Shown here: positions 1 to 22,141 of the stretch, piece by piece
How the letters are laid out: each line of letters begins with the position of its first letter
How positions within the stretch are numbered: position 1 is the first letter of the stretch
Source of the DNA: an uncultured delta proteobacterium
GTDB taxonomy: Bacteria > Desulfobacterota > Desulfobacteria > Desulfobacterales > JAHEIW01
Length of the DNA stretch: 64,000 nt
Direction: 5' to 3'
Assembly (NCBI GenBank): GCA_963706575.1
Contig: CAVPNL010000001.1
Location: forward strand, 224,001 to 288,000
The notes under the pieces: generated by a model
Told to the model about the DNA's origin: nothing
Databases searched by the model: none
Seen by the model: only the letters and a program-made list of their open reading frames with translations
Made by a program: the position numbers and the translations under genes

Positions 1-594
1 GAAATGATCCACAGTTTGCTGGATTTTAAAATAGAGGTGGCGGTGATTGCCAGGACAGAAGATAACCCGGAGGTCCATTTTCTCCCGTTTAGCCGGGAAG
101 AAATGGCGGTCATCGTTTCAACGGATCATCATTTGAGCAGGGAAAAAGCGACCACCTTTAAAGCGCTGTCTGCAGAACCCTTTATTATGAAAGAAAAAGG
201 CTCAGGGACGCGCAAGCTGGTGGAAGAATTATTTGAAGCCGAGCAATGCACGCCTGACATTTTGATGGAAACCAGCAATACCGAGTTCATCAAACAGCTG
301 GTGCAGCGCGGAGAAGGGGTTTCGTTTGTCGTGCGGGAAGCGGTTGCCGCCGAACTGAAAGAAAAGAAGCTGATTGCCGTTCCCCTGAAAGACCCAACAG
401 TGTATCTGGATGTCAGCATTGCCTACCTGAAAGGCCAGGTGCTTTCGCCGCCGGCCAGAGCCTTTGTCGATACCTTAATCGGTTTGAAGTCAGACGATTT
501 GCACCCCATGGGAATCGGTCTGATGATGGCCAAAATGCTTACCCAGCGCAAGGAGGAGCAAAGAAAAATTTCGAAAATGAGGAAGTCCATATGA
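1..594 (+). CDS. LysR-family regulator, C-terminal effector domain (5' end outside window)
   Basis: FIMKEKGSGTRKLVEELF and IKQLVQRGEGVSF are CysL/CbbR-like LysR motifs; aligns along its length with the complete LysR at 4177-5124. Confidence 0.9.
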   Translation, partial: EMIHSLLDFKIEVAVIARTEDNPEVHFLPFSREEMAVIVSTDHHLSREKATTFKALSAEPFIMKEKGSGTRKLVEELFEAEQCTPDILMETSNTEFIKQLVQRGEGVSFVVREAVAAELKEKKLIAVPLKDPTVYLDVSIAYLKGQVLSPPARAFVDTLIGLKSDDLHPMGIGLMMAKMLTQRKEEQRKISKMRKSI

Positions 595-1190
595 GCGATC
601 GACCTGTTTTCAAGCAAATTTATCAACTTGCCCAACCGTATCTAAACACGCGCTACAATGATGTCCACACTGAGATGTCCATGCAGCTTGCATACCAACT
701 GCTAAGTGCCGAGGGAGGTCAGGAAAGTATTGTGATTCCGGCTATCATTCTGCACGATGTCGGCTGGCAAAAAGTTCCGGTAGCGCTTCATCTGAAGGCA
801 TTTGGTCCTAAGGCAACCTCACCGGAGATAAACAGGACTCACGAGAAAGAAGGCGTAAAGATCGCCCGAAAAATTTTAACAGAGATTAATTATGATAAGG
901 AAAAAATTACTGAAATACTCAAAATTATTGACGGCCATGATTCCAGAAAAAATTCTATTTCGTTAAATGATCGGATCGTTAAAGACGCAGACAAGCTCTG
1001 GCGCTATACTCAAAAAGGGTTTGAGGTAGACAACAATCGATTTGAAGAGACCGTCGCTGAAGGATTAAACCGCCTGCGCAAATATTTAGCCAGGTGGTTT
1101 TATACGGATACGGCCTTTCAAATCGCAAAAGATGAACTCCAACAGCGGGAAAGAGAAGCTGACAATGATTCGAGGCTGGCCGGTAATTAG
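591..1190 (+). CDS. HD-domain metal-dependent phosphohydrolase
   Basis: H...IILHDVGW...H...HD...VKDADKL signature; ATGA overlap with the upstream stop. Confidence 0.85.
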   Translation: MSDRPVFKQIYQLAQPYLNTRYNDVHTEMSMQLAYQLLSAEGGQESIVIPAIILHDVGWQKVPVALHLKAFGPKATSPEINRTHEKEGVKIARKILTEINYDKEKITEILKIIDGHDSRKNSISLNDRIVKDADKLWRYTQKGFEVDNNRFEETVAEGLNRLRKYLARWFYTDTAFQIAKDELQQREREADNDSRLAGN

Positions 1191-1716
1191 TCGTGAGCAG
1201 GTTGGGGATTTTGGGCTCTTTTCATTGATTCAAAAAACGGTGCGCTCAGCACGCACGGGCGAAATCAGAGAGGTGCAGGCGATCCAATTTCCAGACTGGG
1301 TGTTGGTCCTTGCACTCACGCCGCAAGAGGAAGTCGTGATGGTGCGTCAATTCCGCCACGGCACCGAGCAGGTCTGTTTGGAGTTGCCCGGCGGGTTGGT
1401 GGATTCGGGTGACGATTCACCCGAATTATCCGCTCAGCGGGAACTGCTGGAAGAGACCGGATATCAAGCCGATGAAGTTGTACTTCTGGGAGAATGTTGC
1501 CCGCAGCCGGCGGTTTTGACCAATAAATGTCTTTTTTATCTGGCCCAAAATGCTGTCCGGGTTCAAACCCAGAACCTGGATGCCGGTGAGGATATCGAAA
1601 TTTTGGAAGTTCCTTTAAAAGAGATTGCGGCTAAAATCAGAAACGAGGAAATCGATCACGGCATGGTGCTATTGGCCTTCTTCTATTTCTGGATGAAACA
1701 GGGGCAGATGGGATAG
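1165..1716 (+). CDS. NUDIX hydrolase, ADP-ribose pyrophosphatase-like
   Basis: Nudix box ELPGGLVD..SAQRELLEETGY plus VRQFRH; start placed at the second Met. Confidence 0.9.
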   Translation: MIRGWPVISREQVGDFGLFSLIQKTVRSARTGEIREVQAIQFPDWVLVLALTPQEEVVMVRQFRHGTEQVCLELPGGLVDSGDDSPELSAQRELLEETGYQADEVVLLGECCPQPAVLTNKCLFYLAQNAVRVQTQNLDAGEDIEILEVPLKEIAAKIRNEEIDHGMVLLAFFYFWMKQGQMG

Positions 1717-3093: not shown

Positions 3094-3200
3094 TCCCTCA
3101 GCGTTGACATAAGCCACACCATACTTATATCTAAAATGAGCGTTTGAAATTTTAAAAATGGGGATACATCTTTATTCCAGAGGAATGCTATCGATTTATA

Positions 3201-3340
3201 TTTTTAAAATTTAAAACCCCTACGGGGATTGCCGATCTTACCGCATCTACCGCGTCAGATGCCGTTTCGCATAGTCAACTATAGCGGAACGACATCTTCC
3301 TTGTAGCTGCGGCAACCTCGACAATCGCTCAATTTAGATC
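3201..3340 (+). repeat. Dispersed hairpin-forming element, family A, copy 1
   Basis: Core 3225-3340 is the reverse complement of 59350-59465 with about 6 differences in 116 nt; nested imperfect inverted repeats around CATAGTCAACTATAG. Confidence 0.9.
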
Positions 3341-4176: not shown

Positions 4177-5124
4177 ATGATCAATCTTAATCAGCTCAGG
4201 GCATTTTATCAGGCCGCAAAATGTCAGAATGTGAGCCTGGCGGCCAAGGAGTTATTTGTCAGTCAGCCGGCGGTTACGGCACAGATAAAGCTGTTTGAAG
4301 AAAACTGTGGCCTGAAGCTTTTTAAAAAAAAAGGCCGCAACCGCTATCTTACCGACGAAGGCAAAACACTCTTCAATTACGCCCGAAAGATCTTCGAATA
4401 TGAAAAGAAAATCGAAGATGCTGTCGAGCAGATGAAGGAATTAAAGAAAGGCAGCCTTCGATTAGGCTCGGCCCGGACTTACGCCCGTTACTTCATGCCT
4501 TTTTTACTCACCGGATTCCGTGACGCTTACCCGCAGATTAAAATTCATTTCGATGAAGGCAGTTCCCTGGAAATGATCAACAGCCTGATCGATTTGAAAA
4601 ACGAAGTGGTGATCATCGCCAGAGCCGATGATCATCCGAACATTGCCTTCATTCCTTTCAGCCGGGAGGAACTGGTGCTCATATTACCGCCCAATCATCC
4701 TTTGGCAGATAAAGATAGCATCCGTTTTGAACAAATCGCCGCCGCGCCCATTATCATGAAAGACCCGGGTTCCGGGACCCGCAAACTGGTAGACGAATTA
4801 TTCGCTAAAAATAATTGTACGCCCAATATTTTGATGGAAACCGGGGACGCTGAAATCATCAAGCTGCTGGTGCAGCATGGAGAGGGGGTCTCGTTTCTGG
4901 TGAAAGAGGCAGCGGCCGTCGAACTGCATGAAAAAAAACTGGTCACCGTTCCTTTGAAGAAACATTCAATTTTCTTAGATGTCAGTATCGCTTACCTCAG
5001 GCAGCAGCCGCTTTCACCTGCTGCAAAGGCGTTTCTAAAGAGTCTGGAGAATTTAGGGACTAAGAAAATGCGTTTCCAGGGGATGGGCGCCCTGATGGCA
5101 AAAATGCTTGCCGATGAAAGATGA
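4177..5124 (+). CDS. LysR-family transcriptional regulator
   Basis: NLNQLRAF..AAKELFVSQPAVTAQIKLFEE helix-turn-helix, LTDEG, full effector domain. Confidence 0.95.
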   Translation: MINLNQLRAFYQAAKCQNVSLAAKELFVSQPAVTAQIKLFEENCGLKLFKKKGRNRYLTDEGKTLFNYARKIFEYEKKIEDAVEQMKELKKGSLRLGSARTYARYFMPFLLTGFRDAYPQIKIHFDEGSSLEMINSLIDLKNEVVIIARADDHPNIAFIPFSREELVLILPPNHPLADKDSIRFEQIAAAPIIMKDPGSGTRKLVDELFAKNNCTPNILMETGDAEIIKLLVQHGEGVSFLVKEAAAVELHEKKLVTVPLKKHSIFLDVSIAYLRQQPLSPAAKAFLKSLENLGTKKMRFQGMGALMAKMLADER

Positions 5125-5828: not shown

Positions 5829-8042
5829 TTATCCTGTCACCGGGTGCTCATTGCCGTAGCTTTTAACCTTGTATACTTTGCATTGAAAGGTTCGCAGCGG
5901 CCAGGAGCCTAATGCTTCATCGCACTCCTCTTCGGCGCTTGAGGTGCAGACGTTGATATTGGACACCCACACGCCGTGCAGCCAGGGCTCCTCTCCCGGC
6001 ATTTCCGGATACCACCATCCATGCTGGCCGTGCACCACGCGAGGGTCGATGTGCTCAAAGATTTCAACTTTTTGCATGACCCGCCCATGTTGCGTTTCGA
6101 TCCAGGCCCAATCGCCTTCCGCAAGCCCCAGATCTTTGGCCGTGTCGGGATGTAGCTGCATTTTGGCCCAGGGGTATCGTTTGCGCAGCTTTTCGATCTG
6201 GCGATGCTCGGAGTGAAAGAAGGGATGAAAGCGACCGCCGGTGATTAGAATCAACGGATACTTTTCAGCGAGCTCGGGCGTGCGGATTGCGCTTTCCGGA
6301 GGCTCTTGATAATAGGGCAGTGCGTCGTAACCCAGTTTTTCCATCACTGTTGAGGCAAGCTCGATCTTCCCGGTTGGTGTGCCGAAACCGCCCATTTTTT
6401 CATATTTTTTGTATTCCCATTTCTCGGGTTCCCAACGGCCCATTTCAAGTAGTTTCTTGAAATTCAATCCCATGGGCTCCAGGCGATAATCATAGTACGC
6501 TTCCAGGGTTTCCCAGGGCCAGTGCTGCTCCTGCCCCAATCGGACACCCAGCCCGCGCCAGAAGTCAAAGTCGGTGCGCCGGTCGTGCTTACCCGCAATC
6601 GTAGGCGGTACGGCCGCCTCGCCGGCCACAATAACCGGTGTCGTGTTGTGAAAATTCCACAAAAAGTCACGCTCCTGCCACATGGCGCTCGGCAATACAT
6701 AGTCTGCCAGCTGGGCGCTGGGGGTCATAAAATAGTCCACCACGACATAGAGATCCAGGCTTCTGAGGGCTTTGTGGACGAGCTTTGTATTGGGTATGGT
6801 GACCATAGGATTTGATGAGAGCGTAATCAAGGCGCGCACCGGATAAGGATCGCTGTACGCGATTGCCTTATAGAGCGATGGGGCAGGGGCCATGCAGGTA
6901 TAGCCGAACATATCACAGCGTTTGCCCCAGACACGTTCCACGTTGCTCTGGACCATTTCGTAACCGGGCCAGCTGTAAAGTTTAAATTGATTGCCCAGAA
7001 TTTTTGCGCGCTGTTCGACCGGCAGGGCTTCGGGCATCTCAATTTCATGCTCGGTGATAAACGGCGCCGGGCCCAACAGTTCCTCGCCACCCTGCACATC
7101 CACATTGCCCACGATGGCCGAGATAATGTGGCGCGCTGCGATGGCGCCATACGAATTGGGTTGGTGGGCCACCCCCATACCCTCCATGGCACAGGAAGGC
7201 GTTTCGGTGGCAAACATGCGAGCAGCCGCCTTGATCTGGTCTGCCGGCACCCATGTGATTTCGGCGGTCTTGTCGAGTGGATATTCTTTGGCGCGTTGCG
7301 CCAGCGCATCAAATCCATGGCACCATTTCGTGACAAACTCTTTATCGTAAAGATCTTCTTCGATAATAACATTAATCATGCCCAGCAGCAGGGCGCAGTC
7401 CGTGCCCGGGCGCAGCTGAAGCCACAAATCTGCTGCTTCGGCCGATTCCGAACGGCGGGGGTCGATGACAATGAGTTTGGCGCCGTTCTTCTGTGCGCCC
7501 TCGATGCCCTCCCAGATGGTCTGGTGAGAATGAGGCGGATTGCGGCCGATGAGCATCACACAGCGGGTATTCTGCAGTTTTTCGATGTGCATCCAATACG
7601 GCCACCAGCCGAAAAGCGTGGTGGCCACCACCGCTGAATTACCGTGACAGATTTGAGCCTGGCCGCACTGGTTGGGACTGCCGAAAAGGTTCAGAAAACG
7701 CGAATTGAGCTCCTCGTAGGTTCGACTGGTGCCGGCTGTTACCCCCAGGGTTTCGGCACCATACTGATCCTTGAGTGCCTGTAATTTAGCGGCAATCTCA
7801 TCCAGGGCTTCGTCCCAGCTGATCTGCTGCCACTTGTTTTCACCTTTCTCTCCGATTCGCTTGAGCGGATAATTCAGACGGTCCGGATGGTAAAATCGGT
7901 CTAAATCCGGGGCCCACTTGCGCGGGCATTTCTTGATAGTTGAGGTGCTGACGTTGACGATCTGATTGTCTTCCACCTCGAGATCGAGAACGCAGCGCGG
8001 TTTGCAGCGAAAACAGATGGAATGCTTGATTTCCTTAGCCAT
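5829..8042 (-). CDS. Mo/W-bisPGD enzyme of the DMSO reductase family, acetylene-hydratase-like clade
   Basis: CFRCKPRC..C [4Fe-4S] motif, DRLNYPLKR, ISWDEALDEIA, Cys metal ligand in QICHGN, LRPGTDCALLLGMINVII, DYFMTPSAQLADYVLP, TPTGKIEL, HGWWYPE; 737 aa; no Tat peptide. Confidence 0.85.
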   Translation of the reverse strand: MAKEIKHSICFRCKPRCVLDLEVEDNQIVNVSTSTIKKCPRKWAPDLDRFYHPDRLNYPLKRIGEKGENKWQQISWDEALDEIAAKLQALKDQYGAETLGVTAGTSRTYEELNSRFLNLFGSPNQCGQAQICHGNSAVVATTLFGWWPYWMHIEKLQNTRCVMLIGRNPPHSHQTIWEGIEGAQKNGAKLIVIDPRRSESAEAADLWLQLRPGTDCALLLGMINVIIEEDLYDKEFVTKWCHGFDALAQRAKEYPLDKTAEITWVPADQIKAAARMFATETPSCAMEGMGVAHQPNSYGAIAARHIISAIVGNVDVQGGEELLGPAPFITEHEIEMPEALPVEQRAKILGNQFKLYSWPGYEMVQSNVERVWGKRCDMFGYTCMAPAPSLYKAIAYSDPYPVRALITLSSNPMVTIPNTKLVHKALRSLDLYVVVDYFMTPSAQLADYVLPSAMWQERDFLWNFHNTTPVIVAGEAAVPPTIAGKHDRRTDFDFWRGLGVRLGQEQHWPWETLEAYYDYRLEPMGLNFKKLLEMGRWEPEKWEYKKYEKMGGFGTPTGKIELASTVMEKLGYDALPYYQEPPESAIRTPELAEKYPLILITGGRFHPFFHSEHRQIEKLRKRYPWAKMQLHPDTAKDLGLAEGDWAWIETQHGRVMQKVEIFEHIDPRVVHGQHGWWYPEMPGEEPWLHGVWVSNINVCTSSAEEECDEALGSWPLRTFQCKVYKVKSYGNEHPVTG

Positions 8043-8155
8043 TTTTATAAACCTCCAATTTTATTTATTCGGTTATAAATGGATATCGGACTTCATATAC
8101 GCTATTTTATGAGCGGGTTTGATGATTAAGTCAATTCATATGATTTTATAAAAAA

Positions 8156-8172
8156 TATAAGTTTTTCTTATA
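8156..8172. promoter_or_regulatory. Putative LysR-type operator upstream of the Mo/W enzyme gene
   Basis: Perfect dyad TATAAG-TTTTT-CTTATA containing T-N11-A, about 115 bp upstream of the start codon. Confidence 0.55.
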
Positions 8173-8282: not shown

Positions 8283-9491
8283 CTAAGTTTGCTCCTGGAT
8301 CATTTGATCCATCATTTGAGCGGCTATTGTCGCAAATGCCGGATCGTTAATGTGGTGATCGGCTTCTTGAATTTGGATTTGAGGAGCGAGTTTTTCCTTA
8401 AACAGTTGCGCAAAAAACTGGTTCATGAGCGGTTCATAAAGGGGGCCGCCTGCGCGATCAGCCTCCGACCATCCCTGCAAAGGGATTAATATTTTTATAT
8501 TTGAAGGGTCTTTATTTAATTTTTCTGATAGCTGATCGGCCAGTGTTCGCGTTTCGTCTTCGTTCAGGCGAATGGCAGAGCGGAAATCATAAAAAAAGAT
8601 CTTGCGGTCTTTATACTGGTCGGGAATATTATGCCGGGTGAATTCTAAAACCGCACAATCAAGCCCCCCCGGTACGACCAGACGGGGTATCGAATGCCCC
8701 GGGACCGGCTCGAATCGCTGCGGCCCGATATCGCCGCAATATCCGTCCAGCAGATGATCGGCCAGCTCATGGGTGGCCAGGTCGAGGATGCCGTGGAAAT
8801 ACCCTTGAGCCGCAAGTTCCTCCATGGCCATGCCGCCGGTGCCGTTGGCATGGAATGCAACCACCTCGTACCCCAGCTTTTCAAGGGCTTCTTTGGTAGC
8901 CTCCGCACCAGCAGTGATGAATCCGAAAAAGGGCAGGGCAATCCGTTTTTTGGCCTCTTGAGGTTTCCAGCGGCTTTGGACCATGCCACAGATGCCTGCT
9001 GCGGCTTTATCCAGGATACGGCCCGAAACACTGTTTATACCCAGCAGGTCGGCGACACTGTGTATCATGGTGATATCTTTGGTGCCGACTGTCCGTGCCA
9101 TGTTACGGGAGGCCACGGTGGAAACCATAACTTTGGGGACACCCAACGGGAGTTCATGCATGATACTGCTGGCGATATGGGTACCGGTGCCGCCGCCGGC
9201 AGAGATCATTCCAGATATTTCACTCTCCTCATAGAGTTTTTTAATTCGGGCGCTGGCCTCATTGATCATTGCTGCAATGGCTTTATCTCTGCTTTCTTGC
9301 ACAGCCGAATTATTTTCAATAACCAATTGGTACAAGTCCAGATCTACCGGGGCCGGAGATGGATTGCCGGTGCCGACATTAACCGTTAAAACATCTACAC
9401 CCATTTGCTCAATACGATCTTTTAGAAAAATATGCTCTTCAGCCTTGGTGTCAAAAGTCCCCACCACTGCGATCTTCGGCTTAATGCTCAT
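8283..9491 (-). CDS. Tm-1-like ATP-binding protein (UPF0261)
   Basis: VVGTFDTKAEE, GGGTGT, LPLGVPKVMVSTVAS, FHANGTGGMAME, DLATHELAD, VPGGLD, HINDPAFA. Confidence 0.9.
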   Translation of the reverse strand: MSIKPKIAVVGTFDTKAEEHIFLKDRIEQMGVDVLTVNVGTGNPSPAPVDLDLYQLVIENNSAVQESRDKAIAAMINEASARIKKLYEESEISGMISAGGGTGTHIASSIMHELPLGVPKVMVSTVASRNMARTVGTKDITMIHSVADLLGINSVSGRILDKAAAGICGMVQSRWKPQEAKKRIALPFFGFITAGAEATKEALEKLGYEVVAFHANGTGGMAMEELAAQGYFHGILDLATHELADHLLDGYCGDIGPQRFEPVPGHSIPRLVVPGGLDCAVLEFTRHNIPDQYKDRKIFFYDFRSAIRLNEDETRTLADQLSEKLNKDPSNIKILIPLQGWSEADRAGGPLYEPLMNQFFAQLFKEKLAPQIQIQEADHHINDPAFATIAAQMMDQMIQEQT

Positions 9492-9557: not shown

Positions 9558-10037
9558 CTAAATTTCATTTAGACGATAGAATCCATCTTTATGCCAGACG
9601 AGCGGAGGATTGCCCGTATCGTTCTGATTAACCACCCGCCCGATGAAAAGGTGGTACCCTTTTATTTCATTTGAACTCTCGACCTCACATTCCATCCAGG
9701 CGGCCGCCCCCTCCGGGACCAGGGCCGCACTGCCGGCCCCCGGTTTTGCCTTAATGGCAAAGCGCTCAAACTTATCGGTGATTAGGCCCTTGGCGCTGCC
9801 CACCTGCATGGCCAATTGTTTTTGGCCATCTCCGGCGATGACGAGCGTAAACCTGCCGGCCTCTATAATTAATTTTTCGGTCAGGTGACCTTTAGCTACA
9901 CTGATAACCAGCAGTGGTTCTTTTTCCGACACAAACATAGCGGTAGCCGTCATGATATCTCTTTCGCCTTCATGGGCAGTGCTGACGAACACCACCGAAC
10001 ACGGCAGCCAGTAGAATACATTGTTTTCTTTATTCAT
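9558..10037 (-). CDS. Flavin reductase-like / flavoredoxin FMN-binding protein
   Basis: P.SVVFVST, SEKEPLLVISV, AWMECEV, HLFIGRVV, PLVW. Confidence 0.85.
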   Translation of the reverse strand: MNKENNVFYWLPCSVVFVSTAHEGERDIMTATAMFVSEKEPLLVISVAKGHLTEKLIIEAGRFTLVIAGDGQKQLAMQVGSAKGLITDKFERFAIKAKPGAGSAALVPEGAAAWMECEVESSNEIKGYHLFIGRVVNQNDTGNPPLVWHKDGFYRLNEI

Positions 10038-10041
10038 TTTT

Positions 10042-11166
10042 TTACCTCAGCAGATATCTGGAAATTAGCAGTTTTTGGATCTCTTCGGTCCCTTCCTCGA
10101 AATGATACGAGCGCGCATCCCGAAAATGGCGCTCAATCGGATAGGCCCGTGTGTAACCGATGCCGCCGTGTATTCGCAGAGCCATTTCCGATACGCGGGT
10201 CAAAACTTGCTCCGCGAAAAGTTTTGCCATGGCGGCTTCTTTAACGATATCCATGCCCTGATCGAACTTCCAGGCCGCTTCATATGCCAGCAGACGGGCA
10301 GCCTGGATTTCGGTGCCCATCTGGGCGATGTTGTTTTGAATGGCCTGCCGTTTGGCAAGCAGCTTGCCAAAGGTCGTTCTTTGTTTGGCATAATCAATTG
10401 CCAGATCCAGCATGCGTTGGGCTAACCCGACGCAGCAAAACGCAATGGAGACCCGGCTCAGGTGCAGCATGCCAAAGGCCACCTCCAAACCCTTGCCCTT
10501 TTCACCCAGGATGTTGGCGGCGGGTACCCGGCAATTTTTGTAAATCACATTGTAGTGCCGTGGCCCCACGCAGCCCATCATCTTTTCCATGGGCTTAAGC
10601 ACCACCCCGTCACATGGCAGGTCAATTAAAAAGGAAGTAATGCCTTCTTCGGTGGCTGCAAACGCATAGATGAGTTTGGTGTAGCCCGGAAATAGGGTTA
10701 TGAGCCACTTGTGGCCGTTTAGAATATAAGCGTCGCCATCTTTTTGGGCCTTGGAGTTGATATCTTTGCCGGTGCCGGCTTCGGGCTCGGTCAAGCTGTT
10801 GGCTGCCCAGATCTTGCCGGATGCCAGCTGCGGTAAATACTTCTCTTTTTGTTCTTCGGTTCCAAAATGCAGGATCGGCCGCCAGAACAAACCATTCATG
10901 GTGTGTGCGATCAATCTAACCGTTGCATAGGCTTTGGCCAACTCTTCAAGAACCGGAAACCACTCCACCGCACTCCATCCCTGACCCCCGTATTCCTGCG
11001 GAATGGTAAGGCCGAAGAATCTTCCCTTTTTGAGTTCTGCCACCAACTCATCGGGCAGCTTTTCATCTTCTTCCAGTGGTTTCGACAGGGGGTCTAAAAC
11101 ATTTTCCACCCACTCGCGGGCTTCTTCTTTGTATTTTAGAATTTCATCGGACAGACTAAAATCCAT
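10042..11166 (-). CDS. Acyl-CoA dehydrogenase
   Basis: IPQEYGG, SLTEPEAGT, LNGHKWLIT, YAKQRTTFGK, IHGGIGY, ERHFRDAR..EEGTEEIQ; AGGAGA RBS. Confidence 0.95.
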   Translation of the reverse strand: MDFSLSDEILKYKEEAREWVENVLDPLSKPLEEDEKLPDELVAELKKGRFFGLTIPQEYGGQGWSAVEWFPVLEELAKAYATVRLIAHTMNGLFWRPILHFGTEEQKEKYLPQLASGKIWAANSLTEPEAGTGKDINSKAQKDGDAYILNGHKWLITLFPGYTKLIYAFAATEEGITSFLIDLPCDGVVLKPMEKMMGCVGPRHYNVIYKNCRVPAANILGEKGKGLEVAFGMLHLSRVSIAFCCVGLAQRMLDLAIDYAKQRTTFGKLLAKRQAIQNNIAQMGTEIQAARLLAYEAAWKFDQGMDIVKEAAMAKLFAEQVLTRVSEMALRIHGGIGYTRAYPIERHFRDARSYHFEEGTEEIQKLLISRYLLR

Positions 11167-11186
11167 ATGCATCTCCTTTTCACAAT

Positions 11187-11948
11187 TTAGCCAATCATTG
11201 TCAGGCCGCCGTCAATACTCAGAACCTGACCGGTTAGATATCTTGAATCATCGCTGACAAAAAAGGCGACCACATCCGCCACGTCTTCGGGTTCGCCCAG
11301 GCGCCTGAGCGGGATTACGCGTGTCACCGCCTCGGTGTATTTTTGACCCTTTTCGCCCGAATGCAGGTTGTCCCAGAGATCGGTATTCACCGGACCCGGG
11401 CTGACGCAGTTTACCCGGATGTTGTAACGAGCCAATTCTTTGGCCAGCGCTTTGGAGCTGGCCATGATGGCCGCCTTGGTGCCGCAATAAAGGACCTCAC
11501 CGGGGTTGCCGATTCTTCCCGCGTCTGAGCCCAGGCTCACGATATTGCCGCTTTTTTGTTCTACCATGATGGGGATGCAAACATGTGAAGCAATCAGAAA
11601 ACTTTTGTAATTCACATTAATCATTTTTTCCCATAAATCTTCAGCGGTCTCCACAAAGTAGCGGGATTCATCGATCCCGGCATTGTTGATCAGAATGTCA
11701 ACAGATCCCCACTCCTGGTGGATTTTTTCCACCGATTTTTTAACGGTGGCATAATCCGTGACATCGCAGGCAAGCGGGATGGCCTCGACGCCGAATTTGC
11801 GAATTTCTCCGGCAACTTTAAGCCCCAGATCCTTCTGAAGGTTTAAGACAGCCACATTGGCACCATCTTTTGCCAGCCGCAGGGCAATCGCGCGCCCGAT
11901 TCCGCGGGACCCGCCGGTCACAATCGCTGTTTTTCCTTTTAATCCCAT
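11187..11948 (-). CDS. SDR dehydrogenase, BadH-like (2-hydroxycyclohexanecarboxyl-CoA dehydrogenase type)
   Basis: TGGSRGIG, NNAG, GSDAGRIG..GE.LYCGTK and C-terminal TGQVLSIDGGLTMIG resemble the BadH subfamily. Confidence 0.8.
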   Translation of the reverse strand: MGLKGKTAIVTGGSRGIGRAIALRLAKDGANVAVLNLQKDLGLKVAGEIRKFGVEAIPLACDVTDYATVKKSVEKIHQEWGSVDILINNAGIDESRYFVETAEDLWEKMINVNYKSFLIASHVCIPIMVEQKSGNIVSLGSDAGRIGNPGEVLYCGTKAAIMASSKALAKELARYNIRVNCVSPGPVNTDLWDNLHSGEKGQKYTEAVTRVIPLRRLGEPEDVADVVAFFVSDDSRYLTGQVLSIDGGLTMIG

Positions 11949-12010
11949 AGTTGAAACCTTTCTAGATTCAAAATTTGTAAGGTTTTACGCATCGCATCTC
12001 AGAAAAGAAT

Positions 12011-13201
12011 TTAGGCCGATTTGGCGCCTTTGGGCAGAGCGCTCGGTCGGGCTATTTTTTTTGTAAACGGCGCAGGCGCTGCCAGCTTCCCTTCAGGCCA
12101 CCGGGAACAGTTCACCTTTTCCATCCTTGAGTCGGCCTCCAGGCACCAGTTACAGGCTGTACAGGGTACGATCTCCTTTGCCTTCCCTTCGAGGGCCTTT
12201 TGAGGCCAATCCGGATCGCAGAGCAATGCGCGACACAGTCCAATAATTTCCGCCTTTTCCTGCTGCAGGATCTCTTCAGCCATTTTGGGAGTGCGGATCT
12301 TGCCGGCCGTTACAATCGGAGTGTTAAAGCCGGCCTTATTAACTGCTTTTTTTATGCCTTCGGCCAGATAGACATGGGTTGCGTCAGGAAACCACCACGT
12401 CGGGCTCATCCGATGACCGCTATAACCGGACATGGGATCCGGAGGTGTGTTTTCAGGAGGAGGAGGTGCATCTTCGAATCTGCTGCCGCCCGACACGCTG
12501 ATGTAGTCGGCTCCCAGCTCAGCGAATTTTTTGGCAACCTGTGTGCTTTGAAGCAAGGTTGTTCCCGGAGCTGTGAAATCCTCACCATTTATTCTAATGC
12601 CAAGGGGATAATGCTCGCCGACAACCTGACGCGCCGCTTTATAAACTTCTATCGGTAACCGCATTCGCCTGTTCAAACCACCCCCATAGTCATCCGTTCT
12701 GTCATTTGATAACGAAAGAAATGAAGATAGGCTATAGGCGTGGGCCATATGGAGTTCGATAAATTCAAAACCTGCTTTTAAGGCGCGCTCTGCAGCGTCT
12801 GCATGTTGGCGCACAATAATCGGAAGATCTTCGGGTTTGAAATCCGAAACTTTTTGTCTCCAACCGCTTCTGGCGATCTTCAAGAAATGCATGATTTGGA
12901 TCCCGATTTTGGTATCCGGATTCACCTCACGAACGCTTCGAACAAGATCTTCTAATTCTTTGGTAAAACTATCATCACTGATACGCAGATTATACGAGCT
13001 CCGTGAGGGCAAAACCACCGCCGCTTCCACGACTAAAGAACCCACACCGCCATTTGCTTCCCGTCGATATCTGGCGATGAGATCATCTGTGACGTGACCG
13101 TCTTCTGTGGCCAATCCGGAAACCATTGAAGTCCGCATGATTCTGTTAGGAAATGTCACGCCCTTCAGATTAATTTTCGAAAAGAGGTTTTCATATTTCA
13201 T
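12011..13201 (-). CDS. Old-Yellow-Enzyme-family flavin oxidoreductase with C-terminal [4Fe-4S] motif and no FAD/NAD domain
   Basis: NRIMRTSM, ELHMAHAYSLSSFLS..NDRTDDYGG, RALLCDPDWPQK, CTACNWC-x11-C; 396 aa. Confidence 0.9.
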   Translation of the reverse strand: MKYENLFSKINLKGVTFPNRIMRTSMVSGLATEDGHVTDDLIARYRREANGGVGSLVVEAAVVLPSRSSYNLRISDDSFTKELEDLVRSVREVNPDTKIGIQIMHFLKIARSGWRQKVSDFKPEDLPIIVRQHADAAERALKAGFEFIELHMAHAYSLSSFLSLSNDRTDDYGGGLNRRMRLPIEVYKAARQVVGEHYPLGIRINGEDFTAPGTTLLQSTQVAKKFAELGADYISVSGGSRFEDAPPPPENTPPDPMSGYSGHRMSPTWWFPDATHVYLAEGIKKAVNKAGFNTPIVTAGKIRTPKMAEEILQQEKAEIIGLCRALLCDPDWPQKALEGKAKEIVPCTACNWCLEADSRMEKVNCSRWPEGKLAAPAPFTKKIARPSALPKGAKSA

Positions 13202-13232
13202 TTCGAATTCCTTTCGTTCTCCGATCGATCGA

Positions 13233-14888
13233 TCATTCTAACGCTTCTACTTTTAGCTTTTCTTCTATATCTTTTTTAAGAATCTTTTTATCCGCCTTCC
13301 CTGCAGCAGTCAATGGTATCTCGCTCACAAAAATTGTCCTTTCAGGATAGTGTATTTTAGCAGCCTCCAGCGTCTTTAAGTGGTCAAGAATTTCCTCATG
13401 GGAGAGCTTTGTCCCTTTTACGAGTTTAACATAGGCACAGATTTTCTCACCTAAATCCGGATCCGGCATGCCGACCACGGCCACGTATTCCACCTTTGAA
13501 TGCGAAGAAATGAGATCCTCAACATCGCGGGCCGCAATGTTCTCACCACCCCGGATAATGATATCCTTTATGCGGCCGGTAATCCGTACATTGCCGCCTT
13601 CATCCACGGTTGCGAGATCACCGGTGCGAAAGTAGCCATCAGGTGTAAATTCTTTCTTATTCGCATCCGGATTTTTCAGGTACCCTGTAAAAACTCCCGG
13701 GCCCTTGGCGCTCAACTCTCCCTCGACCCCTGTAGGGCATGGATTCCCATCCTCGTCAAGGGTTACGAATTCATCATAGGGGCAGCAAGGACGGCCGATA
13801 GTACCCCGTCTTACCTCCACAGGGTCTTCCGGACGGGACTGGGACAACGGGCCTTCCACCATACCGAAGGCATTAATATAACGGGCTTTGATTTTTTCTT
13901 CCACCGCCGTCACCAGCTCGGGTGGGCTGTTGGCGGCACCCACGTAAATTTTCTTTAAGGAGCTTAAGTCATAATCAGCCAGGTTCTCGAACTTGACAAT
14001 CCGGCTAATCAGTGTGGGAACAAGTCCTGTGCAGGATATTTTTTCATCCTGCACGATTTGGCAGAAATCCCGGGGATAGGTGGAATCCAGCATTACTATG
14101 GTGGCACCGTGGAATACTGGACCGGTTATGCAGACAAGCAATGCCAGGTTGTGCCCCACGGGCGTTGCCACCAGACAGGTGTCGGTGACATTCATATGCC
14201 AGGCGCGCGATTTGTACTCTATATTGCAGATATAGTCGTTGTGAGTTCTGGGGGCGCCTTTAGGCAGTCCAGTCGTACCGCCGGACGGTAGGATCTGACA
14301 GACATCGCGAGGATCCGGACGTGATCCTTCCAATACGGCCCGGATGTCCTGATCCATAGAAACGGGCTGAATCAGGTCATCGAGCCTCAGATAGCCCTCA
14401 GGTGTTTTCTGTCCTGCAAGAATGACCTTATCCAATCCTGCGGTTTTTTTCATCGTCTGCCGGATTATAGGTAAATAGTCCATCTTGCGGTAATGATCGG
14501 GCAGAATCCAACCTTTCGGCCGGGTAAGCTCGGCCAGATGGGCAATTTCCCTGGCGGTATGATTTACGGTGAGAGGCACCATAATCAAACCGGCTTTTTG
14601 CAGTGCAAAATAGGAGATTACGAATTCCGGCCAATTGGGGAGTTGAAGCAGAACGCGATCTCCGGCTCTAAATCCTGCCTGCAGCATCCTGTAGGCCATC
14701 GTATCGACCCGGCGACGAAGCTGGGCGTAGGTATAACGTACGCCGGATCCTACCAGAGCATCCTTTTGGGGATAAAGATCGCTGGCTTTATCGACCATGT
14801 CTCCCAGTGTCATTCCCAGCCACCATCGCTTTTTCTCATAGATGTCGGCAGCTGTGGAATCGTATGGGATAAAGCCTTCCAGGTTCAT
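13233..14888 (-). CDS. AMP-forming aryl-acid ligase (DhbE/EntE-like), probably a CoA ligase
   Basis: QLPNWPEF, SGGTTGLPKGAPRTHNDY, FGMVEG, GYFRTGD, GRIKDIIIRGGENI, AGKADKK. Confidence 0.9.
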   Translation of the reverse strand: MNLEGFIPYDSTAADIYEKKRWWLGMTLGDMVDKASDLYPQKDALVGSGVRYTYAQLRRRVDTMAYRMLQAGFRAGDRVLLQLPNWPEFVISYFALQKAGLIMVPLTVNHTAREIAHLAELTRPKGWILPDHYRKMDYLPIIRQTMKKTAGLDKVILAGQKTPEGYLRLDDLIQPVSMDQDIRAVLEGSRPDPRDVCQILPSGGTTGLPKGAPRTHNDYICNIEYKSRAWHMNVTDTCLVATPVGHNLALLVCITGPVFHGATIVMLDSTYPRDFCQIVQDEKISCTGLVPTLISRIVKFENLADYDLSSLKKIYVGAANSPPELVTAVEEKIKARYINAFGMVEGPLSQSRPEDPVEVRRGTIGRPCCPYDEFVTLDEDGNPCPTGVEGELSAKGPGVFTGYLKNPDANKKEFTPDGYFRTGDLATVDEGGNVRITGRIKDIIIRGGENIAARDVEDLISSHSKVEYVAVVGMPDPDLGEKICAYVKLVKGTKLSHEEILDHLKTLEAAKIHYPERTIFVSEIPLTAAGKADKKILKKDIEEKLKVEALE

Positions 14889-15288: not shown

Positions 15289-15348
15289 ATTGACTTTTAA
15301 GATTATAGTTGCTTTATTTTATCATTACCTAAGGTGAGTCAATTTGCG

Positions 15349-16011
15349 ATGAAAGAGTGGATCAAAATTGAAAGGATACCGGGTGTTCTGGCCAGCGCTT
15401 ATGTGAAGGCCACCAGAATGGTAATCGAAAGCTATTATCGCCCGGTGGCTCGAGAGATTGCCGCCAATTTAAACCAAGGTACCATTTTAGACCTGGGCAC
15501 TGGTCCGGGTTATTTGCCGGTCGAAATAGTAAAAAGATCCCCAACGATAAACGTTATTGGGGTTGACCTCAGTCGTAAATTAATTGAAATGGCGCGTTTA
15601 AATGCCGTAAAAGCAGACCTGACGGAGCGTCTTACTTTTAAAGATGGAAACGCCGGCAGATTGGAGTTTGCAGATTCATCCTTTGATATGGTCATCAGTA
15701 CCGGCATGCTGCATTCACTCAAGGAACCGGTCAACGTTTTGCAGGAAATTTACCGGGTGCTAAAAACGGACAGAGAAGCATGGATTTTTGATCCGGCCAA
15801 AGTGGCATCTGCAGTGGACCGCCAGAGATGGAAGGAATCTCTGAATTTGCGGGAACGATTTTTTCTTTGGCTTTTTCAATTATTCGGTTTACATAAGCCG
15901 ATTAAAGCCTATACCCGTGAGCAGGCGATTGCTCTGATCGAAAAAACAGATTTTAAAAATTACCAGATTGATGCGCGCGACAACGAAATCAGAATAAAAT
16001 TGCGAAAATAA
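15349..16011 (+). CDS. Class I SAM-dependent methyltransferase
   Basis: ILDLGTGPG, GVDLS, FADSSFDMVIS, LQEIYRVLK. Confidence 0.9.
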   Translation: MKEWIKIERIPGVLASAYVKATRMVIESYYRPVAREIAANLNQGTILDLGTGPGYLPVEIVKRSPTINVIGVDLSRKLIEMARLNAVKADLTERLTFKDGNAGRLEFADSSFDMVISTGMLHSLKEPVNVLQEIYRVLKTDREAWIFDPAKVASAVDRQRWKESLNLRERFFLWLFQLFGLHKPIKAYTREQAIALIEKTDFKNYQIDARDNEIRIKLRK

Positions 16012-16071
16012 TAATCAATGCTTTATTAAAAATTTGTATTAGTATTTGCGGCTTTCCATGAGGTTACCCAA

Positions 16072-16398
16072 ATGCATACTTATAAAAAAATATACGAGTT
16101 TGCCGCCGCCGCCGGTGCCTTTGAAGGATATGTTTATCAAAGATCTAAAGCAGAAATCGACACCGAAGCATTGTACAGCTGGGTGGATAATCTGATCGGT
16201 GCTTATGAAAATCTGACTTCTGAGGCTCGAGACGAATGTCAATCTTCAATTGACCAGACCCTTGGCAGAGCAATCAAATCCCTTGGCCTCCTATTCGATG
16301 ATCGAAACGCTCTTATCAACAAACTGCAGAAAATTGTAAAGGGTGAATTGCCTGGAAGCCCGGATGATTTTCAAAAAGAAAAATGGTTTCAAGAATAA
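16072..16398 (+). CDS. Hypothetical protein, predicted all-helical
   Basis: 108-aa ORF with GAGG RBS inside a same-strand gene run. Confidence 0.7.
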   Translation: MHTYKKIYEFAAAAGAFEGYVYQRSKAEIDTEALYSWVDNLIGAYENLTSEARDECQSSIDQTLGRAIKSLGLLFDDRNALINKLQKIVKGELPGSPDDFQKEKWFQE

Positions 16399-16412
16399 AT
16401 TTTGGGGCTTTG

Positions 16413-16811
16413 ATGGCAGAAGATCTGGTTATAACCGGGAAAATTATCAGCGGGGCGGGCGAGGGCGCATATTTTACACAGATCGGCTGGGTTCAGCAGC
16501 AATGTGATGAAAAGCTGGGCTTTAAACCCTATCCAGGGACGCTTAACCTGGAAATTTCAGAAGAATTTCTTCCAGCCATTGAAACTCTGGATCAGAAAAA
16601 GGGGATTGGGCTGATCTCCCCTGACCCCAAATATTGCAATGCCATGGTTTTTCAGGTTTCCTTGGGAGACATTCGCGGCGCGATTATCCTGCCCGAAGAA
16701 AAGGTAAGGATTCATCCTAAAAACATTATTGAGATTATTGCTCCCCTGAACCTAAAAGCAGCTCTTAATTTGAATGATGGTGATTCTCTGAAGATCACTA
16801 TCATCCATTAA
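16413..16811 (+). CDS. ribK: CTP-dependent riboflavin kinase, archaeal type (DUF120)
   Basis: GKIISGAGEGAYF, KLGFKPYPGTLNL, H..IIEIIAP.NLK..L.L.DGD. Confidence 0.9.
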   Translation: MAEDLVITGKIISGAGEGAYFTQIGWVQQQCDEKLGFKPYPGTLNLEISEEFLPAIETLDQKKGIGLISPDPKYCNAMVFQVSLGDIRGAIILPEEKVRIHPKNIIEIIAPLNLKAALNLNDGDSLKITIIH

Positions 16812-16867
16812 CAAGATGCGGTCGGGTAAACGGACCAACGGACGAACAGGCTTAACTTAGGTATATT

Positions 16868-17557
16868 ATGTCTTATAAACAGAAGAAGCTAAAAGTGGCA
16901 GCCGTGATATTTGATCTGGATGGAACCCTGATCGATTCGATCGACATTTATTTCTCAATCGTTGAAGAAGCATTGGCGAGACTCAATTTGCCTGCAGTTT
17001 CACGCAGTCGAATCCTGGCAGCGGCAGAAAGTGAGGATTTTAAATGGGAGCTCGTTTTGCCGCAAGACGTCTTGCACCGCAAAGAAAAAATTATCGATGA
17101 GGCCTGGGCGGTGATTAACGAGATCGCACCGCAGATGTTTGCGGACAACCTGGATTTAATCCAGGGGGCGGGAGGTACTGTTGAAAATTTGTCTTCAAAA
17201 GGATTGAAGATTGGTCTGGTTACCTCAACTCAGCGGCAGTATTTGGAAACGAAGATGCAGCCATTGAAAAATGCCGGTGTCGACACATTGTTTGATGTCA
17301 TTATCACAAGCGATGACGTTGAAAAAAGAAAACCGGCTCCCGACCCGCTTATTGCTTGTGCACAACAGCTCGACCTGAAACCGGACAACTGTGTTTATGT
17401 CGGCGATACCACGACCGACATTAGGGCCGGCAAGGCAGCCGGTATGTGGACAGTTAGTGTTCTAACCGGTTTTGATGAATATGAGGCCCTTGAAACAGAA
17501 AATCCGGATGCCATTATAAAAGACGTTCAAAATTTGCTGGAAGTAATTGAAGTCTAG
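16868..17557 (+). CDS. HAD-superfamily phosphatase
   Basis: FDLDGTLIDS, VTS, KPAPDP, YVGDTTTDIRAGKAAGM. Confidence 0.9.
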   Translation: MSYKQKKLKVAAVIFDLDGTLIDSIDIYFSIVEEALARLNLPAVSRSRILAAAESEDFKWELVLPQDVLHRKEKIIDEAWAVINEIAPQMFADNLDLIQGAGGTVENLSSKGLKIGLVTSTQRQYLETKMQPLKNAGVDTLFDVIITSDDVEKRKPAPDPLIACAQQLDLKPDNCVYVGDTTTDIRAGKAAGMWTVSVLTGFDEYEALETENPDAIIKDVQNLLEVIEV

Positions 17558-17646
17558 TGTTTCGGCAAATAGGTTAGCGCCTGTGCACAGGAAAAAATGA
17601 CTGGAATAAAATATACCTTACAACCTCTACAGCACCGGGGGTGGAA

Positions 17647-19296: not shown

Positions 19297-19317
19297 CGTC
19301 CGTTCAAAGGAAACCTG

Positions 19318-19836
19318 GTGACAGATAGGAAAAAACACGAAAGAGAGACGATTCGTCTCACCATAAATGATGTGGTTCAGGAATTTGAAATTGGTGACCA
19401 CGCTTATCAAGTGACACCCTACGAGACGCTGGCACAGACGCTCAGAGAGACGCTGGGTCTGAAGGGGACCAAAACAGGATGCAATCAAGGCGCATGCGGC
19501 TCGTGCACGGTTTTAATGGAGGGAATTCCTGTTTTGTCATGTATGCTGCTGACCATCGAATGCGACGGGAAACAGATCACCACCATCGAAGGTCTTCAAG
19601 ATCAAACAACGGGTAAATTGGATGAGATTCAACAGGCCTTCATCGATCACACCGCCTTTCAATGCGGGTTTTGCACCCCCGGTCTTATTATGGCATCAAA
19701 GGCGTTGCTGAGCAAAAATCCGTCTGCGACCGAAGCAGAGATCAAACAGGCCCTCTCCGGTCACTATTGCCGGTGTATCAGTCACTACCATGTTGTCGAG
19801 GCCCTCATAACGGTTAGCGGGAAAAGCAGAAAATGA
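19318..19836 (+). CDS. Xanthine-dehydrogenase-family 2x[2Fe-2S] subunit
   Basis: GCNQGACGSCTVL..SC, QCGFCTPG, CRC. Confidence 0.95.
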   Translation: MTDRKKHERETIRLTINDVVQEFEIGDHAYQVTPYETLAQTLRETLGLKGTKTGCNQGACGSCTVLMEGIPVLSCMLLTIECDGKQITTIEGLQDQTTGKLDEIQQAFIDHTAFQCGFCTPGLIMASKALLSKNPSATEAEIKQALSGHYCRCISHYHVVEALITVSGKSRK

Positions 19837-22106: not shown

Positions 22107-22141
22107 CTTGTGCAAGATGCAAGTAGATAGGAGATAGTAAA

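Follow-up and report, generated by a model that had tools for sequence, protein, structure and literature searches.

A Lysine/Histidine Clade of Acetylene-Hydratase-Like Molybdenum/Tungsten Enzymes Linked to Anaerobic Phenol Metabolism: A Possible Ring Dehydroxylase

Results

The Locus and Its Promoter Design

The window, by which we mean the whole 64,000-nucleotide stretch of DNA that was analysed, carries on its minus strand an intact open reading frame (8042..5829) that encodes a protein of 737 amino acids and whose ATG is preceded by the ribosome-binding site GGAGG. A UPF0261 gene lies upstream, and DUF1508 and LysR genes flank it on the opposite strand. A phenylphosphate synthase and carboxylase operon of ppsA, ppsB, ppcB, a CoA ligase gene, and ubiX (ppcB match 513 bits, cut-off 469) begins 6.5 kb downstream, just outside the window. 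The features are these:

1..594, plus strand: 3′ part of LysR paralogue 1 (C1:223608-224594), oriented divergently to the ppsA-ppsB-ppcB-ligase-ubiX operon just before the window
591..1716, plus strand: HD-domain and NUDIX genes, recurrent in these clusters
4177..5124, plus strand: LysR paralogue 2, which accompanies the enzyme gene and shares 57% identity with the LysR that diverges from ppsA
5829..8042, minus strand: gene for a Mo/W-bisPGD enzyme of the acetylene-hydratase-like assemblage, K14/H133 (K/H) clade, assigned from sequence, tree, and predicted model
7644..7649, minus strand: codons for C132 (predicted metal ligand, equivalent to Cys141) and H133 (equivalent to Ile142) in Q-I-C132-H133-G-N
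7992..8015, minus strand: codons for C10-F-R-C13-K14-P-R-C17, whose cysteines are three predicted [4Fe-4S] ligands and whose K14 stands at the Asp13 position
8104..8134, minus strand: predicted sigma70-type promoter, TTGAC 22 nt past the box, then TCATAAAAT; the ppsA promoter has an identical layout
8157..8171, no strand assigned: palindromic box ATAAG-N5-CTTAT (T-N11-A), conserved upstream of orthologues and putatively of LysR type, judging by its shape and the co-travelling LysR gene
8283..9491, minus strand: UPF0261 (MarK/Tm-1-like) predicted phenolic kinase, with D14-T15-K16 and the His of FHANG kept
9558..10037, minus strand: flavin-reductase-like gene, recurrent in orthologous loci, where it lies upstream of the UPF0261 gene

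The layout of box, 22 nt, and TTGAC occurs at two sites in the 5.67-Mb genome, upstream of the enzyme gene and upstream of ppsA. The pattern, which was derived from those two sites, precedes 17 of the 47 other K/H loci and was not found in the K/H loci outside Desulfobacterales. Since the bare palindrome is no rarer than chance, only the composite layout and its conservation count. A scan for sigma70 consensus sequences and terminators performed at chance level and missed the conserved promoter, and a search of Rfam gave no match.

The Protein and Its Predicted Pocket

Molybdopterin and Molydop_binding domains were found in the protein, and its closest solved structure is acetylene hydratase (2e7z; 484 bits, E 8e-144, 38-39% identity), followed by polysulfide reductase at 246 bits. 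An AlphaFold model (pLDDT 94.3) superposes on 2e7z with a TM score of 0.91, an rmsd of 2.0 Å over 707 residues, and a Z score of 46.7, which places the protein in a broadly defined acetylene-hydratase-like subfamily. Sediment proteins score as acetylene-hydratase-like in the thousands: 7662 of 8000 candidates fell below E 1e-30, a count that takes in more distant family members. A first-pass annotation, made from the DNA letters, had described a protein colinear with acetylene hydratase that keeps four cluster cysteines and a cysteine metal ligand, and this description is borne out: the motif Cys-x2-Cys-x3-Cys-xn-Cys (C10, C13, C17, and C39, the last being the fourth predicted [4Fe-4S] ligand) and C132 are invariant in 81 aligned rows. 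Gapless parts of the alignment to 2e7z pair K14 with Asp13, C132 with Cys141, and H133 with Ile142, so the Lys and His substitutions that it had read were correctly placed. Its third substitution, Arg for Lys48, fares less well; the C39-P-R41 motif is present, but R41 is paired across a gapped loop and is not special, given Arg at this site in 60 of 62 neighboring-clade proteins and in polysulfide reductase (CPRG). A twin-arginine motif is lacking from the N-terminus (MAKEIKHS), and no gene for an FeS or membrane subunit adjoins the enzyme gene within the window; a stand-alone enzyme in the cytoplasm, as first proposed, is the supported prediction.

The substrate ring of acetylene hydratase, which we take to consist of the hydrophobic residues Ile14, Ile113, Ile142, Trp179, Trp293, and Trp472, is replaced here by P15, S106, H133, H173, E287, and H465, as counted by eye on the 2e7z alignment. 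K14, R107, H133, and E287 are invariant polar pocket positions in the clade, and H173 and H465 are nearly so. Trp179 and Trp472 are confirmed as pocket residues of acetylene hydratase (PMC12096430). The predicted pocket is thus polar and largely cationic and would suit an anionic or phenolic substrate. The anionic half of the earlier suggestion of an anionic or CoA-bound substrate is supported. A link to enoyl- or dienoyl-CoA was rejected because the upstream acyl-CoA dehydrogenase, SDR, OYE, and CoA-ligase genes have no orthologue of at least 50% identity in any other K/H locus.

Two further motifs, GTxR (R107) and HSE (H610), are common to the protein and to orthologues of characterised dehydroxylases, whereas the Asp clade has neither. 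Asp13 is missing from those orthologues too, being His in Cldh and Dodh and Gly-Lys in Dadh and Cadh, and the QICHG of our protein is QICKG in Dadh.

A Separate Clade

The K14/H133 proteins form a monophyletic clade drawn from Desulfobacterales, Anaerolineae, and archaea. The pair is not a chance occurrence: among clade proteins that span the site in question, all 45 have K14 and all 49 have H133, the conservation in orthologues that the first-pass annotation had proposed as a check. In neighboring clades both positions vary widely. Asp is kept at site 13 in all 113 Asp-clade proteins with a readable motif (120 examined), and none of the Asp-clade proteins examined has His or Lys at site 142. 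In sister clades and catechol dehydroxylases site 13 holds His, Gly, Asn, Lys, or other residues. Asp13 therefore looks like a specialty of one branch, and the notion of a rewired non-redox acetylene hydratase, suggested by the first-pass annotation, is overstated. The His that follows the Cys ligand also occurs in formate dehydrogenase H.

All trees were quick LG+G4 trees with SH-aLRT support only; the Pelobacter acetylenicus enzyme was left out and represented by proxies related to a plasmid protein of Rhodococcus opacus, one of them from Bradyrhizobium sp. I71, and dehydroxylase orthologues were picked by N-terminal match to rows in the available part of PMC7028382. The K/H and Asp13 clades are separate (SH-aLRT 99-100 each), and the K/H clade is nearer to the Asp13 clade than to the orthologues of Dadh, Cadh, Cldh, and Dodh (SH-aLRT 99-100). 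Constraining the K/H clade to group with the dehydroxylases was rejected (p-AU 0.0124, quick LG+G4 tree), so the protein joins neither characterised group. BLAST concurs, with 36-43% identity to Asp-clade proteins, 34-36% to Gordonibacter-type dehydroxylases, and about 27-35%, in two pieces, to Eggerthella-type enzymes. A degenerate-motif search for true acetylene hydratases in 401 genomes of the phylum gave 18 matches, none in a related gene, and five N-terminal motifs of unplaced Gordonibacter genes had no match in the supplement of PMC11887054. Among the characterised enzymes that could be placed, none was found in the K/H clade.

An inserted GltD/NfnB-like FeS-FAD-NAD(P)H module separates the third and fourth cluster cysteines of one clade member, P0047, and favors redox chemistry. 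The module is found in 1 of 59 clade proteins; a search at E 1e-150 found no fusion longer than 1290 amino acids, a weak negative.

A Link to Phenol Metabolism across Genomes

A Pps or UPF0261 kinase gene is present in 18 of 22 K/H loci of at least 10 kb, as opposed to 2 of 68 loci of other homologues; for loci of all lengths the figures are 29 of 48 and 2 of 112. This link recurs in Desulfobacterales, Desulfobacteraceae, Anaerolineae, Dehalococcoidia, and the 59-61% tier, and the kinase gene is absent within four loci (L014, from Syntrophaceae, L008, L081, and L007). The first-pass annotation overlooked both this conserved tie to the phenylphosphate pathway, whose genes are mostly just outside the window, and the redox hint of the fused NAD(P)H module. 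The K/H gene occurs in 14 of 401 genomes of the order, 12 of them from one family and several being the same organisms as the loci just counted; a close PpsA is found in all 14 and in 70 of the 401 overall, and the enzyme gene is therefore an accessory to the pathway.

No recurring partner subunit appears across the 48 K/H loci. We considered the UPF0261 protein as a dedicated partner, a candidate weakened by UPF0261 genes of the adjacent type in five phenol clusters that lack the enzyme. Runs labelled as RNA matched contigs of relatives in small shares only, and so are not evidence of expression.

Discussion

The position of the gene beside a phenol operon, together with the promoter design that it shares with ppsA, makes removal of a ring hydroxyl a likelier role than hydration of acetylene. 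We suspect, with a little less than even confidence, that the enzyme acts in the cytoplasm to dehydroxylate catechol-type substrates reductively and so feeds them into the phenol route, although nothing in evidence favors catechol above other phenolics. It would work like the catechol dehydroxylases of the gut, with which it does not group. One ring hydroxyl would be stripped from catechol, its phosphate ester, or protocatechuate, and the product would enter the pathway of phenol phosphorylation and carboxylation. On the model proposed for the mechanism of dopamine dehydroxylase, a reduced M(IV) center would bind the leaving hydroxyl, the neighboring hydroxyl would tautomerise as K14, H133, or E287 protonated the ring carbon, and the oxygen would move to the metal to yield a monophenol. 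Electrons to re-reduce the metal would come through the [4Fe-4S] cluster, supplied by a soluble ferredoxin or by an NAD(P)H-flavoprotein whose gene lies elsewhere, and LysR paralogue 2 may respond to a phenol-like effector by activating the enzyme gene.

The same neighborhood and promoter would also suit a reductase acting on another substrate of the phenol pathway, one that would dehydroxylate 3- or 4-hydroxybenzoyl-CoA, hydroquinone, or an aryl phosphate, or remove an amino group or halogen, with the cationic pocket binding phosphate or carboxylate. We regard this as rather unlikely. An ARMT1-like phosphatase in 11 of 48 K/H loci (0 of 112 others, 0 of 20 further phenol-cluster regions) hints at the handling of aryl phosphates, but the genome studied here has no ARMT1 match. 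The closest class of 4-hydroxybenzoyl-CoA reductase alpha subunit (at least 850 bits, 35 genomes, two candidates scored per genome) is found in 0 of 14 K/H genomes, where the K/H enzyme might replace it; yet that class is also mostly missing from PpsA-bearing genomes without the K/H gene, and only 9 of the 35 have a PpsA match. The K/H gene is absent from most Pps genomes and is therefore no core step, and in the available part of PMC11574389 the known aromatic-ring dehydroxylases of the DMSO reductase family act on catechols. Support for a role in benzene activation or halophenol metabolism was not found in the portions of the literature available.

The fused FeS-FAD-NAD(P) module is neutral as to direction, and Cys-His after the ligand is a feature of oxidative formate dehydrogenases; the enzyme might then be a hydroxylase or transhydroxylase that depends on water, supplies the pathway by making or rearranging phenols, and passes electrons to NAD(P)+ or ferredoxin. 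We consider this quite improbable, since the characterised relatives in the assemblage are reductive dehydroxylases or a hydratase, and ethylbenzene dehydrogenase (74 bits) and pyrogallol transhydroxylase (46 bits) are only remotely similar. Very improbable, in our view, is a non-redox hydratase or tautomerase acting in the manner of acetylene hydratase on a polar unsaturated or CoA-bound substrate, toward which the first-pass annotation leaned. Acetylene hydratase is the closest characterised relative by sequence, fold, and tree, and partner subunits are lacking; against this, neither the catalytic Asp nor the hydrophobic ring is retained, an NAD(P)H redox module is present in one clade member, and the upstream acyl-CoA genes do not follow the enzyme gene. 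A true acetylene hydratase with a tolerated substitution is scarcely credible despite the overall likeness to 2e7z in identity and TM score, given that Asp13 to Ala abolishes activity (PMC12096430), that every Asp-clade protein with a readable motif keeps Asp, that none of those examined has His or Lys at site 142, and that the K/H clade stands apart.

Returning to the reductive dehydroxylase, we speculate further, and regard the whole as possible rather than probable, that the K/H clade is a single-subunit ring dehydroxylase, the missing enzyme that takes catechol-type lignin phenolics to the phenol route in sediment sulfate reducers, Anaerolineae, and some archaea. It would have evolved within the acetylene-hydratase branch, with an origin separate from that of the gut enzymes, may act on an aryl phosphate through its Lys/Arg/His pocket, and would be controlled by a duplicated phenol-operon LysR. 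According to a 2015 paper, no enzyme has been reported for anoxic dehydroxylation of protocatechuate; that paper cites a 1985 report that catechol and hydroquinone are dehydroxylated to phenol (PMC4585845). The enzyme gene, its promoter, and its own LysR render such an anoxic step testable. Part of the acetylene-hydratase-like group, as this clade shows, does without Asp13 chemistry and is tied to anaerobic phenol metabolism, and at least one evolutionary argument, in the available part of PMC10100899, takes the family as acetylenotrophy. A natural Asp-to-Lys variant on the same scaffold would inform the disputed mechanism of acetylene hydratase, and cleavage of aryl C-O bonds is relevant to lignin valorisation.

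Comparison with Known Systems

The acetylene hydratase of P. (Syntrophotalea) acetylenicus resembles our protein in length, fold, four cluster cysteines, Cys ligand, and the lack of a Tat peptide and of an adjoining partner subunit. It differs in having Asp13 rather than Lys and a hydrophobic rather than polar pocket, and our protein has GTSR and HSE, a phenol-degradation context, and a clade of its own.

Formate dehydrogenase H (FdhF) has a similar N-terminal 4Fe-4S motif and (Se)Cys-His-Gly at the metal (C132-H133 here), but it falls far outside the K/H clade at about 22-25% identity, and our protein scores 300 bits with TIGR01591, for which the cut-off is 666. Arg333 is presumably the catalytic residue of FdhF-type formate dehydrogenases; the alignment to 1aa6 ended before that position.

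The Gordonibacter-type catechol dehydroxylases (Dodh, Cldh, and Eadh1) are likewise cytoplasmic, without a Tat peptide, and have the Cys ligand, GTxR, HSE, a His at the Asp13 site that is protonatable as Lys is here, and Arg at the Lys48 site. A LysR gene adjoins one such member, Gs Vadh, as in the K/H locus (available part of PMC11887054). They lie on a different branch (34-36% identity, p-AU 0.012), are missing the first cluster Cys (GPGC), pair with a small FeS subunit, and serve gut respiration, whereas the K/H enzyme would serve catabolism in sediment. The Eggerthella-type enzymes (Dadh, Cadh, and Hcdh) share GTSR, have a Lys in the cluster loop (CxxCGK), and read QIC-K-G for our QIC-H-G, but they are Tat-exported, three-subunit membrane complexes of about 1000 amino acids on a distant branch. 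Both types have a neighboring FeS subunit, and Gordonibacter urolithinfaciens has served as an expression host for catechol dehydroxylases (PMC11887054). Our protein therefore has the bis-MGD-type catalytic subunit, the Cys ligand, and the motifs of a catechol dehydroxylase, as seen in the orthologues used here, and lacks membership of a characterised clade and an adjacent FeS electron-transfer subunit, with or without a membrane anchor.

The phe cluster of Desulfatiglans anilini (Pps, PpcB, and CoA ligase), as given in the available part of PMC6114531, has the same core as the operon near our gene. The available part of that source lists no gene of the DMSO reductase family in the cluster; in the order studied here the enzyme is an accessory that 14 of 70 PpsA-positive genomes encode.

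The protein and its fold

The gene at 8042..5829, minus strand, has an intact reading frame for a 737-aa Mo/W-bisPGD enzyme (the query) that contains all the motifs listed by the first-pass annotation. That annotation's remark that the protein lacks a Tat peptide and adjacent FeS or membrane subunits is borne out at the locus: no Tat motif was found at the N-terminus, and no such subunit genes were found adjoining the query. Among solved structures, acetylene hydratase (AH, 2e7z) is the top match both by sequence (484 bits; runner-up 246 bits) and by fold; superposed on AH, as had been suggested, the predicted model (pLDDT 94.3) gives a TM score of 0.91 and an rmsd of 2.0 Å over 707 residues. 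No NCBIfam family matches the query at or above its own cut-off. Because the alignment with AH has no gaps near C10-C17 and C132, at the backbone level K14 and H133 stand where AH has Asp13 and Ile142. Counted through this pairwise alignment, the counterparts of Ile14, Ile113, Ile142, Trp179, Trp293 and Trp472, which we take to be the six pocket residues of AH, are P15, S106, H133, H173, E287 and H465. Trp179 and Trp472 are named in PMC12096430.

A clade signature at two sites

The best 120 homologues and the query were sorted, using rank and identity, into a close set of 59 proteins and a further set of 62, and the close set forms one clade in trees (24 representatives, SH-aLRT 100), here called the K/H clade. 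Among close-set proteins covering the given site, K14 is present in 45/45, H133 and R107 each in 49/49, E287 in 59/59, H173 in 54/58 and H465 in 54/59 (Arg in 5). Site 14 of the further set holds His (41), Asn (8), Lys (6), Arg (2) or Val (1), and site 133 His (18), Phe (17), Trp (15), Tyr (8) or others; Lys14 and His133 occur together in one of these 62. The counts in both sets make the pair a true clade signature, yet both positions can be tuned in the wider family. The proposed Lys/His pair thus proves invariant within the clade, which is nonetheless less exotic than the rewired active site of the first-pass annotation suggests, Asp13 being confined to one branch. Nor is Arg in place of Lys48 special: Arg41 is found in 60 of the 62 further proteins and also in polysulfide reductase.

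The clade's sources are Desulfobacterales, Desulfobacteraceae, Anaerolineae, Dehalococcoidia, Syntrophaceae, other Deltaproteobacteria and Nezhaarchaeales archaea, the source names seen being MAGs or metagenomes throughout. One homologue (L015:7947-10210) does not form a single open frame in its MAG, the intact ORF comprising only the C-terminal 473 aa; a Syntrophaceae contig carries two K/H genes in tandem (L014:4712-10217), and at L100:2-4490 a K/H gene is followed in tandem by a CxxCN-type paralogue.

Genomic context

The features around the query gene are as follows.
Directly before the window: ubiX, a 129-aa gene, UPF0261, CoA ligase, response regulator, ppcB, ppsB, ppsA
~3122-3340: intergenic repeat, roughly 210 bp, with internal inverted similarity, MITE- or REP-like
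4177-5124: LysR paralogue 2
8157-8171: ATAAG-N5-CTTAT
10042-14888: acyl-CoA dehydrogenase, BadH-like SDR, short OYE, aryl-acid CoA ligase
15334-17557: methyltransferase, 108-aa unknown, CTP-dependent riboflavin kinase, HAD hydrolase
17641-23140: CoA ligase and xanthine-dehydrogenase-family trimer

The ppsA start lies 6.5 kb from the query gene stop, and ppcB scores 513 bits against a cut-off of 469. We compared 159 fetched loci and the window, 48 K/H and 112 not, with L020, L128, L144, L153 and the split L015 assigned to K/H from identity alone. Phenylphosphate synthase (Pps) genes occur at 15 K/H loci versus 2 others, UPF0261 at 21 versus 0, an ARMT1-like phosphatase at 11 versus 0, and UbiD at 6 versus 5. 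The phenolic kinase MarK belongs to UPF0261, according to PMC12624787, and the copy adjoining the query gene keeps D14-T15-K16 and the FHANG His. At loci of at least 10 kb, a kinase gene (Pps or UPF0261) accompanies 18/22 K/H genes versus 2/68 others; the K/H loci lacking one within the locus are L007, L008, L014 and L081. UPF0261 of the adjacent type is present as well in five phenol clusters that lack a query-type gene.

In a survey scoring two candidates per genome, 14 of the 401 genomes of the order carry a query-type gene, 12 of them confirmed by motif and the other two, G259 and G285, assigned by score. A close PpsA is present in 14/14 of these, and PpsA matches in 70/401 overall; 12 of the 14 belong to one family and overlap with the counted loci, so the counts are not independent. 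Cross-lineage support for the pathway link comes from Anaerolineae, Dehalococcoidia and the 59-80% tiers.

The upstream acyl-CoA dehydrogenase, SDR, OYE and ligase genes show no conservation with the query gene across K/H loci, among which they are specific to this genome. The 15334-17557 set is a recurrent feature upstream of the K/H gene and may possibly supply flavin for a prenyl-FMN carboxylase. The trimer falls far below 4-hydroxybenzoyl-CoA reductase cut-offs (alpha, 370 versus 995 bits). The intergenic repeat has about ten more near-full copies in this genome (80-89% identity); RNA-labelled contigs cover it at high depth, and Rfam gives no match for it.

Regulation

Upstream of the query gene, ATAAG-N5-CTTAT is followed after 22 nt by TTGAC and then TCATAAAAT. 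In its own genome this composite layout occurs at two places, before the query gene and before ppsA; since these two sites served to build the pattern, what carries information is that the rest of the 5.67 Mb lacks it and that it is conserved. It precedes 17/47 other K/H loci, each of Desulfobacterales type with an identity of at least ~80%. It also occurs in 2/112 non-K/H loci, in one case upstream of a ubiD-pps operon.

The genome encodes two LysR paralogues that are 57% identical (the next LysR, 27%). Paralogue 1 is divergent from ppsA, and in 20 comparison regions around ppsA, with ~4 kb covered on that side, 17/17 LysR matches are nearer to it. Paralogue 2 travels with the query-type gene even distant from the phenol operon, as in genome G328. 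We infer that paralogue 2 is a duplicated regulator, with a predicted effector of its own. In G328 a different AH-like gene, of CxxCH type (L303:17512-19665), adjoins ppsA, the K/H gene and LysR lying elsewhere.

Possible function

The feature is real: the clade is an uncharacterised one in a known superfamily, and its pathway and regulatory context is unusually good. We tentatively favor, at somewhat less than even confidence, a reductive dehydroxylase of a catechol-type substrate. The substrate would lose a hydroxyl reductively, after the oxygen-transfer mechanism proposed for Dadh (PMC7028382), and the product would enter the phenylphosphate route. A different reduction, with hydroxybenzoyl-CoA, hydroquinone or an aryl phosphate as substrate, is unlikely but deserves weight.

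One of the 59 K/H clade proteins, P0047, carries between its third and fourth cluster cysteines a Fer4_20 and pyridine-nucleotide-disulphide oxidoreductase module (residues ~31-500; GltD/NfnB-like FeS-FAD-NAD(P)H) within the N-terminal cluster domain; P0102 (L105:906-4547), which lies outside the clade, shares these domains. This NAD(P)H module beside the cluster favors redox catalysis. Oxidative hydroxylation by the query enzyme appears improbable; non-redox hydration, against which the P0047 module speaks, we credit slightly less, and that the query is a true AH is scarcely credible.

The literature covered, mostly open-access, yielded no description of the K/H clade and no AH-like gene tied to a phenol operon; full supplements might hold a member. 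The K/H enzyme offers a concrete candidate for a step of anaerobic phenolic breakdown to which no enzyme is assigned.

Comparison with known systems

The D. anilini phenol cluster (PMC6114531) resembles the operon before the window. Gut catechol dehydroxylases are reported to be the nearest characterised kin of AH (PMC7028382), and orthologues of Cldh, Dodh, Eadh1, Dadh and Cadh were recovered via N-terminal matches to supplement rows of that paper. In quick trees with a formate dehydrogenase root and with relatives of a Rhodococcus opacus plasmid protein as proxies for P. acetylenicus AH, the K/H clade falls inside an uncharacterised group of 35 rows whose sister is the Asp clade (support 100), and it is separate from the catechol dehydroxylases, a forced joining being rejected (p-AU 0.0124). 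The Asp clade is as strict as the K/H clade: 113 of the 120 R. opacus plasmid-protein relatives have a readable motif and 113/113 keep Asp, with site 142 occupied by Ala, Leu, Met, Ser or Gly. PMC12096430 calls other AH-subfamily members uncharacterised and Asp13 highly conserved in the subfamily, the latter being true of one branch only.

Two paralogues in the query's own genome are stronger candidates to be genuine environmental catechol dehydroxylases: C12:65939-68245, which groups with the Gordonibacter type, adjoins an AOR gene and has a UbiD gene ~8 kb off, and C1:126774-128933, which groups with the Eggerthella type. Gordonibacter faecis (G788, L227-L233) has 72 profile matches, many of which are a single gene matched in two pieces; the five of its genes that were tested sit in the uncharacterised group containing the K/H clade, apart from known dehydroxylases. 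A R. opacus plasmid protein (L225:3998-6358, NZ_CP082159.1), annotated just "molybdopterin oxidoreductase", keeps the Asp13 motif and is plausibly a true AH. The Mycobacterium plasmid gene annotated 'Acetylene hydratase' (L224:3986-6133, CP045327.1) comes after a toluene-4-monooxygenase operon and has His at the Asp13 site; the annotation is likely wrong.

The query's C132-H133 has its Cys-His motif in common with FdhF. The recovered dehydroxylase orthologues lack Asp13, having His or Gly-Lys there, and at the metal ligand Dadh and Cadh have QICKG. GTxR and HSE are common to the query and all these orthologues and absent from the Asp clade; on the simplest reading of the quick trees, the non-Asp, GTxR state would be ancestral and Asp13 a speciality of the AH branch.
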